From an uncultured virus (IMG/VR IMGVR_UViG_3300029922_000022) (taxonomy: Duplodnaviria > Heunggongvirae > Uroviricota > Caudoviricetes): 64,000 nt of DNA. The notes below the pieces were generated by a model. It saw only the letters and a list, made by a program, of their open reading frames with translations, was not told where the DNA came from and did no database searches. The DNA is taken from IMG/VR virus record IMGVR_UViG_3300029922_000022, one strand, 5' to 3'. Below are positions 5,901-53,221 of this stretch, one piece after another; the first letter of the stretch is position 1, and each line of letters starts with the position of its first letter. The position numbers and the translations under genes were made by a program.

Positions 5901-6932
5901 ATGGTAAAATATAAAAAATGTGAAATATGTGGATTAACTTTTCCTTATACTACTGGAAAATTTACAATTCATTTAATGGAAGAACACAATATATCTTTAA
6001 AAGATTATATTATTAAATATGAATTAGATGGTATAACTCCAAAATGTCAATGTGGTTATTGTGATGATGATGCACCTTTTTATAGAGGTACATTTTTGAC
6101 TAAAAGTAGTGAACATAAAAAATATAAATCTTTAAAGGAAGGTTATATAAAAAAATATGGTATACCTAAATGTGTAAATTGTGGAGAAGATGTAAAATGG
6201 CATAGAGGAATACCAAATATTTATTGCTCACCAAGTTGTTTTCCTTGTCAATGGAATCAAGAGAAAGTTAAACAAACTGTTAAAGAAAGATATGGAGTAG
6301 ATAATGTATCATTTTTAGATGAAGTTAAAGAAAAAATATCAAAATCTAAAAATGAAAAAAATGAAAATGAAAAAAATGAAATTTTAAATAAAATTAAAAA
6401 AACTTGTTTAGAAAGATATGGTACAGTATCTTTTTTTAGTACTAAATTATTTTATGATAAAAATAAAACAACTATGCTTGAAAGATATGAAGTAGATCAT
6501 CCTTCTAAAATGATGAAGAATAGGGAGAGTGCAAGTAAGAGAATGATAGAAAATAATTCAAATTTTGATTTGGATTTTAGAAATTGTTATAACATTAAGA
6601 GATATAAAGATACTGATTTGTGTTATCAGAGTTCATATGAAGAAGACTTTTTAGATTTATGTGATAAGTATCAAATACTTAATAAAGTTGAAAATGGACA
6701 TACATATAAGTTTTTAGAAGAAGATTATTCATATGGATTAAGGACAATTACTGATTTTTGTATTGATGATATGGAGATTGAGATTAAATCATCTTATATA
6801 TTAGAGAAACAAGGAGGAGAAGAAGTTATTGATATAAAAAGAAAATCTGTTAAAAGAGCAGGTAAATATTATTTATTAATTTTAGATAAAAATTATTCTG
6901 AGTTTAATAAGTATTTCAAAAAATTATTTTAA
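5901..6932 (+). CDS. Homing-endonuclease-like protein (Zn fingers, ERYG repeats, PD-(D/E)xK C-terminus)
   Basis: CEIC, CQCGYC, KERYGVDN repeats; YQSSYE...TDF...EIEIKS. Confidence 0.65.
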   Translation: MVKYKKCEICGLTFPYTTGKFTIHLMEEHNISLKDYIIKYELDGITPKCQCGYCDDDAPFYRGTFLTKSSEHKKYKSLKEGYIKKYGIPKCVNCGEDVKWHRGIPNIYCSPSCFPCQWNQEKVKQTVKERYGVDNVSFLDEVKEKISKSKNEKNENEKNEILNKIKKTCLERYGTVSFFSTKLFYDKNKTTMLERYEVDHPSKMMKNRESASKRMIENNSNFDLDFRNCYNIKRYKDTDLCYQSSYEEDFLDLCDKYQILNKVENGHTYKFLEEDYSYGLRTITDFCIDDMEIEIKSSYILEKQGGEEVIDIKRKSVKRAGKYYLLILDKNYSEFNKYFKKLF

Positions 6933-38279: not shown

Positions 38280-39647
38280 TAGTATTTAATATCTTTAATT
38301 AAATCAATGAAAAACAATGATTTTTTAATGAATATTTTCATTAAAATTATTATAAACTTTAAATTAAAATAATACTATAAATTAAATGTTAAAGGCAATT
38401 AAAATAAGACTGTATCCAAGTGAAGATAAAATTATTGATATAAATAAATTGATTGGATCTGCACGATTTGTTTATAACAAATGTCTTAGTTTTAAATCAA
38501 TTGAATATGGGTTATTTAATACTTCAACAGGCATAGGTCAAACAAACAAACACTACATAGAATTAAAAACTAAATATTCATGGCTTGGTGAAGCACACTC
38601 AAAGGTAATGCAACAATCCATGATGAATCTTGAACAGGCCTTTAGTAATTTCTTTAAAGACCTAAAGAAAGGTGATAAAAAGATCGGAGTTGGTTACCCA
38701 GACTTCAAGAAAAAGAAATTTAAAGAAACATGTAGATTTCCAAGTGATGCGATATCAAGTGTCAAAGGAAATAGAATTAATATCATTAAATCTTTAAAAA
38801 ATATTCATTTTAAATGTTCCGTAAGTGATGAAAAATACCTAAACAAACATCAAAAAGAAATTAAATCAGGGACGTTAACTAAGACTAAATCAGGACATTA
38901 TATATTTAGTATTTTAATTGATCGTCCAAATAAAACTTTAAAGAAAGCTACAAATGATGTCATTGGTTTAGATTTAGGCATTAAGGATTTCATCGTAACG
39001 TCCGAAGGACAAAAGTATGAAAATCTTAAAATTAAAAGAAAGAATGAAGTCAAATTATCAAGACTTTACAGGCAATTATCAAGAAAAAAGAAAGGTTCGA
39101 AGAATAAAAATAAGACAAGGATAAAGCTTGCTAAGTTTCATGAAAAATTAAATAATCAAAAAGAATACTACTTACATCAAACGGTGAATCAAATCCTTAG
39201 TGAAAACCAAACTATCGGTATTGAAAACCTTAATGTAAAAGGCATGATGAAAAATCATAATTTAGCTAAATCTATCCAGGAAGTGTCCTGGTCAAGGTTT
39301 AGAACGATATTAACCTATAAATCTGAATGGTATAACCGTGAAGTAATTGTTGTTGATAGATTTTTCGCTTCCACTAAACTATGTAGTGAGTGTGGTTACA
39401 AAAATGATGACTTGACGTTGAAAGATAGATTCTGGATTTGCCCTAAGTGCGGTAAATTACATGATCGTGACATCAATTCAGGAATAAATATTAAAATAGA
39501 AGTAATTAGAATTAAAATAGGACTGAGTTCACCCAAATCAACGCTTCAGGAGAGTAAATCCATTAGATCCTCTGTGAATGAAGAAACAAACAGTAAAAGA
39601 CCTAAAATGATTAAACAGTGATTTCATTGTTTTTCATTATTTTACCG
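38280..39647 (+). mobile_element. Non-autonomous tnpB-only element (IS607- or IS200/IS605-like)
   Basis: Boundaries inferred by restoring the host frame; 15-bp subterminal inverted repeat aatgaaaaacaatga (38306-38320) / tcattgtttttcatt (39624-39638); no tnpA, no TSD. Confidence 0.75.
38386..39621 (+). CDS. tnpB: RNA-guided endonuclease TnpB
   Basis: KAIKIRLYP HTH; RuvC GLDLGIKDF, IGIENLNVKGM, HDRDINS; CSECG...CPKCG zinc ribbon. Confidence 0.95.
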   Translation: MLKAIKIRLYPSEDKIIDINKLIGSARFVYNKCLSFKSIEYGLFNTSTGIGQTNKHYIELKTKYSWLGEAHSKVMQQSMMNLEQAFSNFFKDLKKGDKKIGVGYPDFKKKKFKETCRFPSDAISSVKGNRINIIKSLKNIHFKCSVSDEKYLNKHQKEIKSGTLTKTKSGHYIFSILIDRPNKTLKKATNDVIGLDLGIKDFIVTSEGQKYENLKIKRKNEVKLSRLYRQLSRKKKGSKNKNKTRIKLAKFHEKLNNQKEYYLHQTVNQILSENQTIGIENLNVKGMMKNHNLAKSIQEVSWSRFRTILTYKSEWYNREVIVVDRFFASTKLCSECGYKNDDLTLKDRFWICPKCGKLHDRDINSGINIKIEVIRIKIGLSSPKSTLQESKSIRSSVNEETNSKRPKMIKQ

Positions 39648-42452: not shown

Positions 42453-42794
42453 ATGAAAAAAGCTTATATCGTAAAACTAATTGATGGCGATAATGATACC
42501 ATTATGAAACTTGTTGATCAGGAAACTTGGAATTGGATAAATTTAGATAAATCTGGACAACCAACTCCTACTAAGGTGAAAAAATTTAAATTTTTTGCTA
42601 CTGCTACTGGTGGTAGATGGGATGATAAATTGTGTCCAGATTCAATCCGAGAACGGATCAAAAATGATACAGAATTAAATAATTGTATTTTTGATGGTGT
42701 TTGGATAACAGAAGGTACTTGGAACAACGATAGAGCTATATTAGCACCAGCATTAGAAGATAATAACGAAGATTTTAAAAATAGAAAAAAATGA
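42453..42794 (+). CDS. Hypothetical protein
   Basis: 113-aa ORF. Confidence 0.55.
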   Translation: MKKAYIVKLIDGDNDTIMKLVDQETWNWINLDKSGQPTPTKVKKFKFFATATGGRWDDKLCPDSIRERIKNDTELNNCIFDGVWITEGTWNNDRAILAPALEDNNEDFKNRKK

Positions 42795-42866
42795 CTTTTT
42801 TTATATAATATATAAGAAAGTAGAAAATAAAATAAACAAAATACAAATTTAAATATATACAATATC

Positions 42867-42965
42867 ATGAACAACATTAGTAGAAATATCACAGCAGTCA
42901 CAACAACAACTACCCCCGCAGGAGGCAGACCAGTCGTGTATTTGGGTGATAATAATCTAAGTTGA
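42867..42965 (+). CDS. Putative attenuator leader peptide (32 aa)
   Basis: MNNISRNITAVTTTTTPAGGRPVVYLGDNNLS*; GC-rich core in an AT-rich genome; precedes terminator and tRNA array. Confidence 0.7.
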   Translation: MNNISRNITAVTTTTTPAGGRPVVYLGDNNLS

Positions 42966-42993
42966 TATTTTTATAAAATATTTTAATAGTGTT

Positions 42994-43035
42994 AAAAACC
43001 CAAAGATGATTATTCAACTTTGGGTTTTTTCTTTT
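42994..43035 (+). terminator. Intrinsic terminator/attenuator ahead of tRNA array
   Basis: aaaaacccaaag-N12-ctttgggtttttt-ctttt; 5' arm also complementary to tttgggt (42941-42947) in the leader ORF. Confidence 0.8.
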
Positions 43036-43048
43036 TAAATAATTAATT

Positions 43049-43126
43049 GGTCCTGTATTGGCAGAATTTCCTAAATTCTATGTGCATAATGGAATGAAAA
43101 TGAGAGTTCAAATCTCTTCTGGACTA
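43049..43126 (+). tRNA. Atypical tRNA-Arg(CCT), D-arm reduced, long variable region
   Basis: GGTCCTG/CTGGACT acceptor; AGAAT-TTCCTAA-ATTCT; GAGAG-TTCAAAT-CTCTT T arm. Confidence 0.6.
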
Positions 43127-43136
43127 CAATAAACAT

Positions 43137-43197
43137 CGGGAGTATGTGGTAGTGTCTCGGGTACCGACACAAGAAAGTTCGACTCTTTCTCTTCCGA
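43137..43197 (+). tRNA. Short tRNA-Pro-like element (anticodon GGG or CGG, uncertain)
   Basis: CGGGAG/CTTCCG-A acceptor (C1-G72, A73); GAAAG-TTCGACT-CTTTC T arm; no D arm; 9-nt loop. Confidence 0.4.
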
Positions 43198-43214
43198 CAA
43201 AGGTTGAATTAAAT

Positions 43215-43287
43215 ATGGATGTAGTTCAGTAGGTAGAATGCTTGGTTTGGGACCAAGTGGTCGGGATTTCGAGCATCCCCATCCATA
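43215..43287 (+). tRNA. tRNA-Pro(TGG)
   Basis: Cloverleaf; CTTGG-TTTGGGA-CCAAG. Confidence 0.85.
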
Positions 43288-43298
43288 CATATAATAAT

Positions 43299-43375
43299 AG
43301 TCCTGTAATGGCATGGTTTTCTAAACCATAAGTGCATAACGGATGTGAATGTGGGTTCGAATCCCATCAGGATTA
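43299..43375 (+). tRNA. Atypical tRNA-Arg(TCT), D-arm reduced, long variable region
   Basis: AGTCCTG/CAGGATT; ATGGT-TTTCTAA-ACCAT; TGGG-TTCGAAT-CCCA. Confidence 0.65.
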
Positions 43376-43384
43376 CAAAAATAA

Positions 43385-43459
43385 GGGGGCTCATGTTCCA
43401 AGGCTCGGCGATGAATATTTGCAATATTTGTGAGGTGAATCCGATTTTCACAGTCTCCA
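43385..43459 (+). tRNA. tRNA-Ala(TGC)
   Basis: GGGGGCT/AGTCTCC-A with G3:U70; loop TTTGCAA. Confidence 0.75.
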
Positions 43460-43493
43460 CTATTTTTTGTTGGGTTCAAAATGATTATAATTT

Positions 43494-43568
43494 GCAGATA
43501 TAGTATAACGGCTAGTACATAACATTGCCAATGTTAAGATACCTTTTCGAGTAAGGTTATCTGCTCCA
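43494..43568 (+). tRNA. tRNA-Gly(GCC)
   Basis: GCAGATA/TATCTGC-T-CCA; TAACA-TTGCCAA-TGTTA. Confidence 0.85.
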
Positions 43569-43664
43569 AGTATTTATGGACATTTTTTATTAATAAGTGA
43601 AAATAATAGTTCGTTTTTGAGTTTATGCTCATCAATATTTTTATATATACAAATAAAAAGTTGT

Positions 43665-44834
43665 ATGGTAGAATATTGTAAATTTTGTGGTAAAGACATT
43701 AAGGATTTAAAGCCAACACAAAAAGGTCAGCATGTTGCAAATTGTAGCATGAATCCAAATATAAAAATAATTAAGGATAAAAGAGCATTATCAAAAATAG
43801 AAACACAGAGAGCAAAAAATCCAATATTGAAAATTAAGTTGAGATGCTTAAATTGTAATGAGGAATTTGAAATTGATGTGATTGAAAGTTATTATAAACG
43901 TGGTAGGTATAAAAAATGTTGTTGCGAAAAATGTGCAAAGCAATATTCAACAAAAAATTATGATGACGATATATTAAAAAAAGATTTTTGTAAAGAATGT
44001 GGAGAAGAATTTTTAGTTAAAAATAGAACAAAAATAGGTATATCAACATGTACAAAATGTAGAAAATTAAAAAGAAATAGAGGCAAAAATATAAAAAATA
44101 TTAATAAAAAACTTGGTGATAAAAATATTATAGAAAAAATATTAGTATGTAAATTTTGTGGTGACGAAAAATGTAAAAAACCAGAAGTGTGTTCAAAATT
44201 TAGACAAAAAAATAATGTTTATGAAAAATATTTAGGTTTTGATAGTAGTAAAAAAGGAAATAATGATGTGTATACTGAGTTTGATAGAATTATAAATGAA
44301 TTAAAATTTGATTATTTTGATAAAGAATTGTCTATTGTTGAAATAAGCAAAAAGTATAATATGAATTATAAATCTATGTATTTAATATTTAAAAAGAATA
44401 ATATTGTTATTAGAACATTTTCTGAAGCTGTAATGAATTCTATTAAAAATGGAAAAATAAATTATAATAATATAGTGCAATATCCATATAAATCTGGAAT
44501 GTATATAACATGGAAAGGTGATAACGTACATTATAGAAGCAATTATGAGAAAGAATATTATTCTATTTTGGATGATAAAAAAGTGAATTATGAAGTTGAA
44601 AGTTTAAGAATACAATATTATGATACACAAAAGAAAAAAATAAGAATTGCAATACCAGATATTTATATTAAAGAAATAAATGAAATTATTGAGATAAAAA
44701 GTAAATGGACTTTGAATGAAATAAATATGAAAGATAAAGTAAAATCATATAAAAAACTAGGATATAATGTTAGATTGATTGTTGGTGAAGGAAATAAGAA
44801 TTTTTTTAAAAATACAATTGATATAATATATTAA
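43665..44834 (+). CDS. Homing-endonuclease-like protein (Zn fingers plus TnsA-like PD-(D/E)xK) inside the tRNA array
   Basis: Several CxxC pairs; YRSNYE...PDIYI...IEIKS; likely ATG start at 43665. Confidence 0.7.
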   Translation: MVEYCKFCGKDIKDLKPTQKGQHVANCSMNPNIKIIKDKRALSKIETQRAKNPILKIKLRCLNCNEEFEIDVIESYYKRGRYKKCCCEKCAKQYSTKNYDDDILKKDFCKECGEEFLVKNRTKIGISTCTKCRKLKRNRGKNIKNINKKLGDKNIIEKILVCKFCGDEKCKKPEVCSKFRQKNNVYEKYLGFDSSKKGNNDVYTEFDRIINELKFDYFDKELSIVEISKKYNMNYKSMYLIFKKNNIVIRTFSEAVMNSIKNGKINYNNIVQYPYKSGMYITWKGDNVHYRSNYEKEYYSILDDKKVNYEVESLRIQYYDTQKKKIRIAIPDIYIKEINEIIEIKSKWTLNEINMKDKVKSYKKLGYNVRLIVGEGNKNFFKNTIDIIY

Positions 44835-44839
44835 AATAT

Positions 44840-44910
44840 GCAAAATGTAGCTTAACGGTAAAGTATCTGATTTCCAATCAGAAGACGGGGCTCAACACCC
44901 ACATTTTGCT
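44840..44910 (+). tRNA. tRNA-Gly(TCC), degenerate T arm
   Basis: TCTGA-TTTCCAA-TCAGA; 8-bp acceptor GCAAAATG/CATTTTGC-T. Confidence 0.6.
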
Positions 44911-44917
44911 CATAATC

Positions 44918-44990
44918 AGGACTTTAGCTCAGTTGGTAGAGCGCAACTATTACAAAGTTGATGTCATCGGTTCGATTCCGATAAGTCCTA
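44918..44990 (+). tRNA. tRNA-Val(TAC)
   Basis: Canonical cloverleaf; CAACT-ATTACAA-AGTTG. Confidence 0.9.
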
Positions 44991-45001
44991 CGAAAATAAT
45001 T

Positions 45002-45072
45002 GCACTTATCGTATAATGATATTACTTTGGCGTTGTATACCAAAAATTTCGGTTTGATCCCGAATAGGTGCT
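45002..45072 (+). tRNA. tRNA-Thr(TGT)
   Basis: GCACTTA/TAGGTGC-T; TTGGC-GTTGTAT-ACCAA (one mismatch); TTCGG-TTTGATC-CCGAA. Confidence 0.65.
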
Positions 45073-45116
45073 CAATAAAATAAACTTTTATTTTATTTTT
45101 TAATATATAAACATAT

Positions 45117-45189
45117 GCCATTATGATGTAATGGATTAGCATTAAAACCTTCTAAGTTTTTCGTCAGCGTTCGAATCGCTGTAATGGTA
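45117..45189 (+). tRNA. tRNA-Arg(TCT)
   Basis: Canonical cloverleaf; AAAAC-CTTCTAA-GTTTT; followed by terminator hairpin 45192-45231. Confidence 0.9.
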
Positions 45190-45345
45190 CAAAAATAAAA
45201 ATCAATCATTATTATGATTGATTTTTATTTTTAATTAAATAATTTTTACAAATTGAATTTATTTCCGTTATATAAAAGTTCTAATTTTTCAGGTAATTTA
45301 TATATTTTCACATTATATTATATATTAATTTTTATATATAGATTT

Positions 45346-46050
45346 ATGGAATATATTAAGAATTATAATAATTACAATGATGATATAATTTTAGAAAAAT
45401 TAAATCTTAAATCTCTTTTAGATACATTTAAATCGTTGAATAGTAAAAAAGTAGCTACTTTTATAGTAGGTGGACTTTTGACTATGATGACTGTTACACA
45501 AACAATAAATTATATAAACAATTTAAATTTAAATGCTAATCAGAAAATAACATTAATACATACTGTTGATAAATTTAAAGATCCATTAAGTTTTGGAGTT
45601 AGTAATTTTATATATGAGCATATCAAAAACCACGAAAAATTAAAATTAAAGGCATATAGATTAAAAGATAATAAAATAACTATAGGATTTGGTCATGCTG
45701 AAAATATTGGAGAATCTAAATTTAAAATTGGAGATCAAATAACTAAAGAACAAGCAGATCAATTATTTGAACAAGATTTACAATTTGCATATGATGGAGT
45801 TAGACGTATATTTAAAGAATGGAATAAAAAAGGAATCAATATAAAATTAACACAAAATCAGTTTGATGTTTTAGTGTCATTAGCATTTAATATGGGAATT
45901 GATAATTTAAGAACTTCAGATTTTATTCAAGCATTAAAACGTAAAGATATTAAGAATGCATCAGAATTGATAAAAATTACTGGATTACGTGATGGATTTG
46001 CTGGATTAGTTGATAGAAGAGAAGAAGAATATAATATATTTATATCATAA
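45346..46050 (+). CDS. GH24 phage lysozyme with N-terminal extension
   Basis: HEKLKLKAY...TIGFGH, LTQNQFDVLVSLAFNMG, GLVDRREEE; likely ATG start at 45346. Confidence 0.9.
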   Translation: MEYIKNYNNYNDDIILEKLNLKSLLDTFKSLNSKKVATFIVGGLLTMMTVTQTINYINNLNLNANQKITLIHTVDKFKDPLSFGVSNFIYEHIKNHEKLKLKAYRLKDNKITIGFGHAENIGESKFKIGDQITKEQADQLFEQDLQFAYDGVRRIFKEWNKKGINIKLTQNQFDVLVSLAFNMGIDNLRTSDFIQALKRKDIKNASELIKITGLRDGFAGLVDRREEEYNIFIS

Positions 46051-46904: not shown

Positions 46905-47269
46905 TGGTGGAGATGTCGGCATACAATAGCCGAGTCCAATATTGCCTTTCAGCATTTTCTACAAGTTTAGTTCATTTTTTCTAAAATAAACAAAAATACA
47001 TAATTTTTAAATGATAATTATTAAATTCATCAAACATTTTTACACCTTAAAATAGTTTGCTAACAAGGTTTCTGATTTTAGACCGATTAGGCTACTAAAA
47101 CTTCATTACCAACAACAGCTTCAGAAACTGCGAAAGTTGTATTAGAAGTTAAAATATGCGTATGTGCTTTGCCATTTAAATTTTACCCATTAATTTATTA
47201 ATCGCTGATAGATAATGCGATACTTGCTGATAACCTTATTCTACATTACTGTCAAAATCGTTCATCCCC
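46905..47269 (-). ncRNA. ssrA: tmRNA
   Basis: 5' GGGGATGAACGATTTTGACAG; 3' CATCTCC-A-CCA with G3:U70; internal tag frame 47173-47087 GKAHTHILTSNTTFAVSEAVVGNEVLVA*; 365 nt. Confidence 0.9.
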
Positions 47270-53069: not shown

Positions 53070-53095
53070 TATATCAAATAAAAATACTATCTTTG
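53065..53095 (+). promoter_or_regulatory. Bacteroidota sigma-70 promoter TTTG-N19-TATCTTTG
   Basis: Upstream of tRNA(CAT) and lipoprotein gene. Confidence 0.75.
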
Positions 53096-53148
53096 TACTC
53101 AATTCTAAAACAAATTATGTTTTTAAACATATAATAATAGTATAATAA

Positions 53149-53221
53149 GGATCATTAGCCAAGTCGTTACGGCATCTGGCTCATAACCAGAAGATCGTTG
53201 GTTCGATTCCAACATGATCCA
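53149..53221 (+). tRNA. tRNA(CAT), elongator Met or Ile2
   Basis: GGATCAT/ATGATCC-A; TCTGG-CTCATAA-CCAGA; GTTGG-TTCGATT-CCAAC. Confidence 0.9.

Follow-up and report, generated by a model that had tools for sequence, protein, structure and literature searches.

Leader-peptide attenuators, many of them multivalent, predicted ahead of tRNA arrays in a clade of huge phages

What decides whether an array of phage transfer RNA (tRNA) genes is transcribed when a strong intrinsic terminator stands immediately in front of it? The question is raised by a tRNA array of approximately 2.1 kb in an uncultured peat phage (IMG/VR record IMGVR_UViG_3300029922_000022), known from a contig of 111 kb with 23% G+C, of which we analysed a stretch of 64,000 nucleotides (nt; hereafter the window, to which all positions refer unless another record is named). 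Between a promoter-like box and the array lie that terminator and, ahead of it, a short open reading frame (ORF) with a run of codons for few amino acids, an arrangement that an initial annotation, made from the letters alone, had interpreted as an attenuator. Our analysis supports that interpretation, to which we assign a probability of roughly 0.85: the element would exert ribosome-mediated (leader-peptide) transcription attenuation, giving feedback control of phage tRNA supply. The basis of this reading is the anatomy of the element, its conservation, two kinds of co-variation (leader with array, and antiterminator strand with terminator) and predicted alternative folds compatible with such a switch. 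The parts of the module are:

42781..42814, + strand: promoter-like box ATAGAAAAAAATGACTTTTTTTATATAATATATA, containing TAGAAA-16-TATAAT and common to the head and tail genes of the clade
42867..42965, + strand: leader ORF of 32 codons, MNNISRNITAVTTTTTPAGGRPVVYLGDNNLS, with a TGA stop; open in relatives
42891..42938, + strand: sensor run, 16 codons restricted to Thr, Ala, Val, Pro, Gly and Arg; the most variable part of the leader among relatives
42941..42947, + strand: region 2, the antiterminator strand TTTGGGT, a copy of the core of the terminator 3′ arm; within the ORF, 16 nt before its stop
42994..43036, + strand: intrinsic terminator, with 5′ arm 42994-43005, 3′ arm 43018-43029 and T-tract 43025-43036

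The 32-codon ORF and the strong terminator 13 nt upstream of the first tRNA are both present as the initial annotation had described them. The hairpin (42994-43029) comprises 12 base pairs (bp) plus 3 apical bp at −16.9 kcal/mol, is followed by T6-C-T5 up to position 43036 and reaches a pair probability of 0.9 in the full-length RNA; the first tRNA-like element starts at 43049, leaving a gap of only 13 nt between terminator and array. The claimed run of 16 consecutive codons restricted to six amino acids was likewise confirmed: among 200,000 shuffles of the same 48 nt none reached 16/16 (mean 8.3), the remaining + frames give scores of 3 and 7, and Thr, Ala, Val, Pro, Gly and Arg together account for 22.9% of the residues in the proteins of the phage. 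Simple wobble rules give 11 of the 16 sensor codons a cognate anticodon in the window array, and none to GTC (twice), ACT, ACC and CCC, so that the ‘codon-for-codon’ match originally claimed was too strong a description for the window. The complementarity proposed between leader and terminator exists and is exact, TTTGGGT (42941-42947) being the complement of the region 3 core ACCCAAA (42998-43004) in the terminator 5′ arm, but it is marginal when taken alone: compared with 300 dinucleotide shuffles, the 7-nt match has P = 0.057 by length and P = 0.027 by duplex energy.

Close relatives, represented by contigs whose neighbouring proteins are 78% identical to those of the window, keep the whole block, with hardly any change in the box, in the eight codons at either end of the leader, in the spacer and terminator or in the first tRNA-like gene. 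What differs is the sensor run, which reads TANTTATTPVTGGRPVA in one relative and TTGTATTTATTPVTGGRPVA in another, with in-frame insertions or deletions of 9 nt and 3 nt, and is limited in all of them to Thr, Ala, Val, Pro, Gly and Arg except for one Asn (the L010/L014 variant). Invariant flanks around a variable run of the same class, altered by in-frame insertions and deletions, are as expected if selection acts on codon class and reading frame and not on the peptide sequence.

The peat phage is a member of a clade of huge phages, whose complete members carry about 60 tRNA genes each, and across this clade we examined 24 promoter–leader–terminator–array units. The relative G001 holds a second array, of five tRNA-Leu genes, behind the same box, an ORF reading MKNYNNIMNLLLSNLLLQNNRTENIMSYLL and a different terminator (AAACCTCAGTCA...TGACTGAGGTTT); this leader (LLL..LLL) contains GACTGAG, a copy of the 3′ arm of its own terminator. 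LR756501, the closest published relative (735 kb; 49% identity in the tail sheath), carries four such modules. The more distant LR745206 has another promoter box and another partition of the amino acids (NRLVITM; PDQ; HFWKS), which its leaders still follow. Leaders and the arrays behind them pair as follows:

Sensor run SKHSKSFKSFWSH: array of Lys, Phe, Ser, Trp, His
Sensor run YINEEMCNNEIINNIDD: array of Met, Tyr, Glu, Asp, Asn, Cys, Ile
Sensor run MIQEQMQQI: array of Met, Gln, Ile, Glu
Sensor run QQQQQ: array of three tRNA-Gln
Sensor run TATVATTTTAPVGGRPVR: array of Pro, Ala, Thr, Gly, Val, Arg
LR745206 leader TTMNLNMTMNLTLNVVNITL: array of Asn, Arg, Leu, Val, Ile, Thr, Met
LR745206 leader PQPQDQDP: array of Pro, Asp, Gln
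LR745206 leader FSKSHKWFS: array of His, Phe, Trp, Lys, Ser and one Arg

Altogether 239 of 262 sensor-run codons, from 22 modules, are cognate to an anticodon of their own array. For 17 of the 24 modules scored, 5,000 simulations produced no in-set run as long as the longest one observed (8-21 residues); three Leu modules have shorter in-set runs (P 0.001-0.013), one Leu module is significant by binomial count only, and the HFWKS module of LR745206 has a run of 9 (P = 0.0002). When every leader is set against every array set, the resulting cross table is class-specific, with the overlapping MQIE and Q sets as the exception. The initial annotation had turned to relatives for two signs, conservation of the leader ORF and co-variation of its codons with array content, and both were found. 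On sequence grounds, the relatives settle the reading: the composition of a leader tracks the content of its array.

The second kind of co-variation links each leader to its own terminator. Every leader contains a perfect complement, 5-10 nt long, of the 5′ arm of its own terminator, separated by 3-12 nt from the end of the sensor run and by 0-36 nt from the stop that follows; this region 2 lies within the ORF in all modules but one, where it overlaps the stop codon. In the TAVPGR module of LR756501 the complement measures 9 nt and pairs with the 5′ arm together with the bases just 5′ of it. Of the 24 modules, 23 were found to have a hairpin and a T-run downstream of the stop, and the terminator of the LR756501 TAVPGR module, which the automatic fold missed, was read by eye. 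In 23 modules besides that of the window, changes of the terminator stem are matched in region 2 or the analogous segment. Tested against its own terminator with 300 shuffles for each of 16 modules, region 2 stood out by duplex energy in every one (P ≤ 0.027) and by match length in 13 (P ≤ 0.05); the sample left out one G001 module duplicating the stem of the window. The mean duplex energy was −11.4 kcal/mol for own pairs versus −6.6 kcal/mol for cross pairs, with modules of similar stems as the exceptions. Homologous modules with different stems show matching changes in region 2 and in both terminator arms, among them a triple compensatory change from GTTCGGA / TCCGAAC / GTTCGGA to GTTTGGA / TCCAAAC / GTTTGGA and a change from ATCGGGGT / ACCCCGAT to TTCGGGGTT / AACCCCGAA. 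In an alignment of six SKFWH-type leaders, region 2 occurs in two registers.

Predicted folds are compatible with a switch between the two hairpins. Folded as nascent RNA, before the terminator 3′ arm is included, 11 of 13 modules had the antiterminator in their minimum-energy structure when no ribosome was modelled, and 13 of 13 had it once the sensor run was masked; at full length, 11 of 13 folded into the terminator. For the window, the comparison of folds with and without a ribosome footprint that the initial annotation had suggested was made with a constrained-fold model, and the probability of pairing between regions 2 and 3 was 0.18 without a ribosome, 0.93 with one stalled near 42900, 0.44 with one stalled at the AGA codon (42927) and 0 with one at the stop codon.

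The box at 42781-42814, which we infer to be a promoter, is shared well beyond the tRNA arrays. A scan of viral contigs gave at least 125 matches, with the full box in at least 73. Among the 73 full-box matches listed, 41 precede ORFs of at least 64 codons, including genes for the head maturation protease, major head, tail sheath and tail tube proteins, and the remaining 32 precede a short ORF of at most 40 codons; all of these short ORFs except one (L069) are leaders of the module types found. A second copy of the box in the window’s own genome, outside the window (G000 C1:111224; L026), stands 5′ of a head-maturation-protease-type gene at the contig end.

Read together, these parts suggest the following circuit, of which promoter activity, leader translation, stalling and read-through are the steps that we infer. 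Transcription would begin at the promoter-like box that also serves head and tail genes, and a ribosome would translate the 32-codon leader. With charged Thr, Ala, Val, Pro, Gly and Arg tRNAs in ample supply, the ribosome would clear the sensor run and cover region 2 or reach the stop; with region 2 covered, the terminator hairpin would form and RNA polymerase would halt 13 nt short of the first tRNA. Were any of the sensed tRNAs scarce, the ribosome would instead stall in the sensor run, leaving region 2 (TTTGGGT) free to capture the emerging 5′ arm (ACCCAAA), so that no hairpin would form and the array would be transcribed. The new tRNAs would quicken decoding and thereby close the gate, so that tRNA supply would limit itself by negative feedback, in time with late gene expression. 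The window module is one of a family: related huge phages divide their tRNA genes among several arrays, each with its own matched leader.

We see about even odds for a broader picture, in which huge phages of the clade would possess a decoding system that balances itself: their approximately 60 tRNAs would be organized into regulons, each behind a multivalent leader that test-reads exactly the codons of its tRNAs, so that the supply of each group would be set by ribosome speed during late expression, largely independently of the host pool, and the same circuit would restore groups cut by host anticodon nucleases. The anticodon-nuclease scenario of the initial annotation is in itself speculation.

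Contigs assembled from metatranscriptome RNA libraries bear on the region in one of four runs, where they cover 42866-42965 and 42936-43084 and bridge the terminator at a depth of 2-4; these contigs have neither ends nor strand and may derive from DNA. In the other three runs, contigs cover neighbouring genes only.

Several observations weigh against attenuation as we propose it. Within the window, 5 of the 16 sensor codons are without a cognate anticodon in their own array, three of the ‘tRNAs’ need relaxed thresholds and one element is unclassified, and the array contents derive in part from relaxed ARAGORN settings (-ps95, -ps85). The window antiterminator is only 7 bp long, marginal by itself (P = 0.057) and far weaker than the terminator. 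A ribosome stalled at the end of the sensor run would hide part of region 2, which is where the pairing probability of 0.44 arises. At equilibrium the window terminator dominates in every ribosome state (P 0.9), and antitermination would therefore have to be kinetic; in the trp attenuator, too, the terminator is thermodynamically stronger than the antiterminator and antitermination is likewise kinetic. Most modules depart from a strictly trp-like scheme, given that 11 of 13 form the antiterminator without a ribosome. Two modules show no significant match between leader and array, one with a truncated flank (L032) and one with three tRNAs called (G006 L158), and both are uninformative because few tRNAs are seen. 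Finally, there are arrays without a leader, one in LR756501 (L170) and two in LR745206 (L177 and L180), and all single tRNAs are without a leader; for the Asn and Met tRNAs of a relative and the window tRNA-Met at 53149, the terminator is absent as well.

Three other explanations can be set against the same evidence. The least credible, to the point that we give it almost no weight, is a chance effect of composition, by which a G+C-rich patch would yield amino acids with G+C-rich codons in a phage that happens to carry tRNAs of G+C-rich families. The patch does have 40% G+C in a genome of 23%, and each of the six amino acids is encoded with C or G in positions 1-2 of its codons; yet none of the 200,000 shuffles of that patch reproduces 16/16, the other frames reach only 3 and 7, and A+T-rich leaders (Leu; SKFWH; MYEDNCI; Q) match their own arrays equally well. 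In our view, the paralogous modules already refute this explanation. It is also very improbable, if somewhat less so, that the ORF encodes a small protein in its own right, from a gene complete with promoter and terminator, the hairpin acting as an insulator and the tRNAs being expressed from an unrecognised promoter or as part of another transcript. That the ORF is conserved with in-frame insertions and deletions would suit a protein, the terminator is strong and dominant at equilibrium, and a weak sigma-70-like match, TTGATA-17-AATAGT, lies at 42962-42990. A functional peptide, however, would not switch its composition class with the neighbouring tRNA genes, as is seen in 22 modules, nor does a peptide gene need a copy of a terminator arm that co-varies with the stem; moreover, only 13 nt separate the T-tract from the first tRNA, and a transcript starting at approximately 42997 would still include the hairpin.

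The strongest of the three, which we nonetheless consider unlikely, accepts the same hardware and gives it another input or function: what the leader senses would be general translation capacity, amino-acid starvation through uncharged tRNA or, as an alarm, cleavage of host tRNA by anticodon nucleases, and it would not be a homeostat of phage tRNAs. A stalled ribosome looks the same whether a tRNA is absent or uncharged, and with an antiterminator that forms in 11 of 13 modules without a ribosome, read-through would follow whenever translation fails altogether; the approximately 60 tRNAs of complete relatives would also fit the replacement of a damaged host pool. What speaks for feedback on the phage’s own tRNAs instead is that each leader is matched to its own array, including under the different partitions of LR745206, which would be pointless in a general sensor, and that extra tRNA gives no relief of amino-acid starvation.

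Leader-peptide attenuation is a textbook mechanism for amino-acid biosynthesis, and in kind the element belongs with ribosome-mediated attenuation. Enterobacterial leaders can be multivalent, that of thr having Thr and Ile codons and those of ilvGMEDA and ilvBN having Ile, Leu and Val codons, and others precede trp, his, leu and pheA. Like these amino-acid-operon attenuators, the phage element has regulatory codons in a short leader ORF, an intrinsic terminator ahead of the genes to be regulated and an antiterminator strand complementary to the terminator 5′ arm, for which it would compete; as in the multivalent cases, more than one amino acid would be sensed, and the position of the ribosome would decide the outcome. 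It differs in that it would regulate tRNAs and not biosynthetic enzymes, with a product that acts directly on what the sensor measures, the speed of decoding; in that up to seven amino acids are represented in one leader; and in being phage-encoded, placed behind a promoter-like box common to structural genes and multiplied into modules that jointly cover the amino acids. The pheST operon of Escherichia coli, with its pheM leader, has an attenuator of phenylalanyl-tRNA synthetase and is similar in placing a leader peptide over a component of the decoding apparatus as opposed to biosynthesis; unlike the phage modules, it controls a synthetase, senses one amino acid and is cellular. T-box riboswitches likewise combine a leader RNA with a terminator/antiterminator switch that reports tRNA status, but they bind uncharged tRNA directly and need no translation, whereas in the phage leader a translated ORF would be the sensor; neither T-box nor other riboswitch families have an Rfam match at E ≤ 1 in 42500-45400. 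Clusters of tRNA genes in T4-type phages contain a homing endonuclease gene (SegB), much as the window array is interrupted by an endonuclease-like ORF (43665-44834); we know of no leader-peptide attenuator for T4-type tRNA clusters, and none was found in the literature searched. An attenuator-like leader of the E. coli tRNA-Phe genes was considered as a precedent and dropped, there being no such ORF in the approximately 100 nt 5′ of pheV in strain K-12.

In the full-text literature outside subscription journals, PMC3082878 included, we came across no account of attenuation acting on tRNA genes or arrays, and none of leader-peptide attenuation in phages; the system is apparently unpublished. 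If the reading is true, tRNA abundance itself would be under direct translational feedback, which would account both for the dosing of dozens of phage tRNA genes and for their grouping. The leaders would be small natural sensors that follow decoding speed for as many as seven amino acids together and could serve as reporters of tRNA depletion or in synthetic circuits. By stating which codons the phage monitors, they would also make testable what phage tRNAs are for, be it codon-usage compensation, host shut-off or counter-defence.

The genes behind the window module lie in the following order:

43049..43130, + strand: atypical tRNA-like element with anticodon CCT (Arg), without a D arm and with a long extra region (relaxed ARAGORN; sequence conserved)
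43134..43205, + strand: unclassified tRNA-like element with acceptor- and T-arm-like ends (by eye; no tool call)
43215..43288, + strand: tRNA-Pro (TGG) (default ARAGORN; Rfam 63 bits)
43299..43376, + strand: atypical tRNA-like element with anticodon TCT (Arg), D arm missing (Rfam 34.9 bits; ARAGORN -ps85)
43386..43460, + strand: degenerate tRNA-Ala (TGC) with G3:U70 (ARAGORN -ps85 only; not in Rfam at E ≤ 1)
43494..43568, + strand: tRNA-Gly (GCC) (default ARAGORN; Rfam)
43665..44834, + strand: endonuclease-like ORF, 389 amino acids from its ATG, which splits the array (phrog_22215, 2.9e-6; phrog_15137 endonuclease, 0.009)
44841..44909, + strand: tRNA-Gly (TCC) (Rfam 47.6 bits)
44918..44991, + strand: tRNA-Val (TAC) (default ARAGORN; Rfam)
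45002..45072, + strand: tRNA-Thr (TGT) (Rfam 41.8 bits)
45117..45190, + strand: tRNA-Arg (TCT) (default ARAGORN; Rfam)
45198..45235, + strand: AT-rich hairpin and T-run, AATCAATCAT-TATT-ATGATTGATT TTTTATTTTT, likely the end-of-operon terminator (by eye)

Default ARAGORN calls four of these tRNAs (Pro-TGG, Gly-GCC, Val-TAC and Arg-TCT), and Rfam adds Gly-TCC, Thr-TGT and the odd Arg-TCT-like element; Arg-CCT, Arg-TCT-like and Ala-TGC are called by ARAGORN only when it is relaxed (-ps85). The tRNA list from which the initial annotation derived its Thr/Ala/Val/Pro/Gly/Arg set is right, but several members are atypical and its ‘Pro-like’ element, 43134-43205, is unclassified, having an odd 9-nt anticodon loop that contains GGG and a homologue in relatives whose loop differs. 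The homologue of the Arg-CCT-like element in relatives is called by default ARAGORN. The two Arg-anticodon tRNA-like genes (CCT at 43049-43130, TCT at 43299-43376) resemble each other, both being without a D arm and having an extra region of approximately 20 nt, and they are conserved in relatives; they are therefore probably functional, if non-canonical. The endonuclease-like ORF, whose PHROG endonuclease matches are weak, has 65-71% nucleotide similarity to Lak megaphage DNA. The AT-rich hairpin at 45198..45235 was not reported by the consensus terminator scan, which needs three G-C pairs.

Homology searches reached the relatives by way of the neighbouring genes. An exact-match search of viral contigs with the window sensor run gave no matches, and a near-identical record (L001) was reached only through a protein search. 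Used as a probe, the upstream 113-amino-acid protein retrieved only L001 and one poor match, and neighbouring genes were better probes. In a blastn comparison of the region with published phages, only the tRNAs and the endonuclease-like ORF matched, and neither the leader peptide nor the four upstream ORFs had a match in PHROGs or Pfam. Besides tRNA, no Rfam family reached its gathering score in 42500-45400, where three non-tRNA matches at E ≤ 1 fell far below it, and across the whole window none did besides tRNA and transfer-messenger RNA (tmRNA). The idea that the G+C-rich patch is a structured RNA was rejected because its fold z-score of −2.65 is owed to the terminator, because it varies among relatives without a conserved helix and because it has no Rfam family at gathering score.

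Elsewhere, the phage contig encodes a tail sheath, a ribonucleotide reductase and many homing-endonuclease-like genes, together with a transposase gene at 38386-39621 (+ strand; phrog_506, E 3e-107). A phage-encoded tmRNA gene lies at 46905-47269 (− strand), approximately 1.7 kb downstream of the tRNA array, with 48.8 bits against Rfam RF00023 (gathering score 47), and the relatives L004/L005 have one at 6425-6791 (− strand; 52.8 bits). Relatives also carry tRNAs with a CTA anticodon, of the amber-suppressor type (L156 847-918 in G005; L175 636 and 714 in LR756501). Recoding of TAG or TGA in the contig was considered and set aside, long ORFs not being gained when TAG was read as sense.

A TAnnTTTG motif (for example, TATCTTTG) occurs 5′ of single tRNA genes and of some boxes (window 53085-53148; L017 at approximately 840-895; L016 at approximately 985-1005). 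We take it to be the Bacteroidota −7 promoter element, in which case it hints that the host may belong to the Bacteroidota. Many Gly, Pro, Thr, Lys, Met and Asp tRNAs of relatives (L007, L153, L163 and others) are 84-94 nt in length and have long extra arms, which are normally found in Leu, Ser and Tyr tRNAs only. In LR756501, upstream of and adjoining the leaderless tRNA array, an ORF (L170 202-342) that ends in ...EEAVALEASLKEIGAEVEVL resembles, as judged by eye, the C-terminal domain of ribosomal protein bL12.

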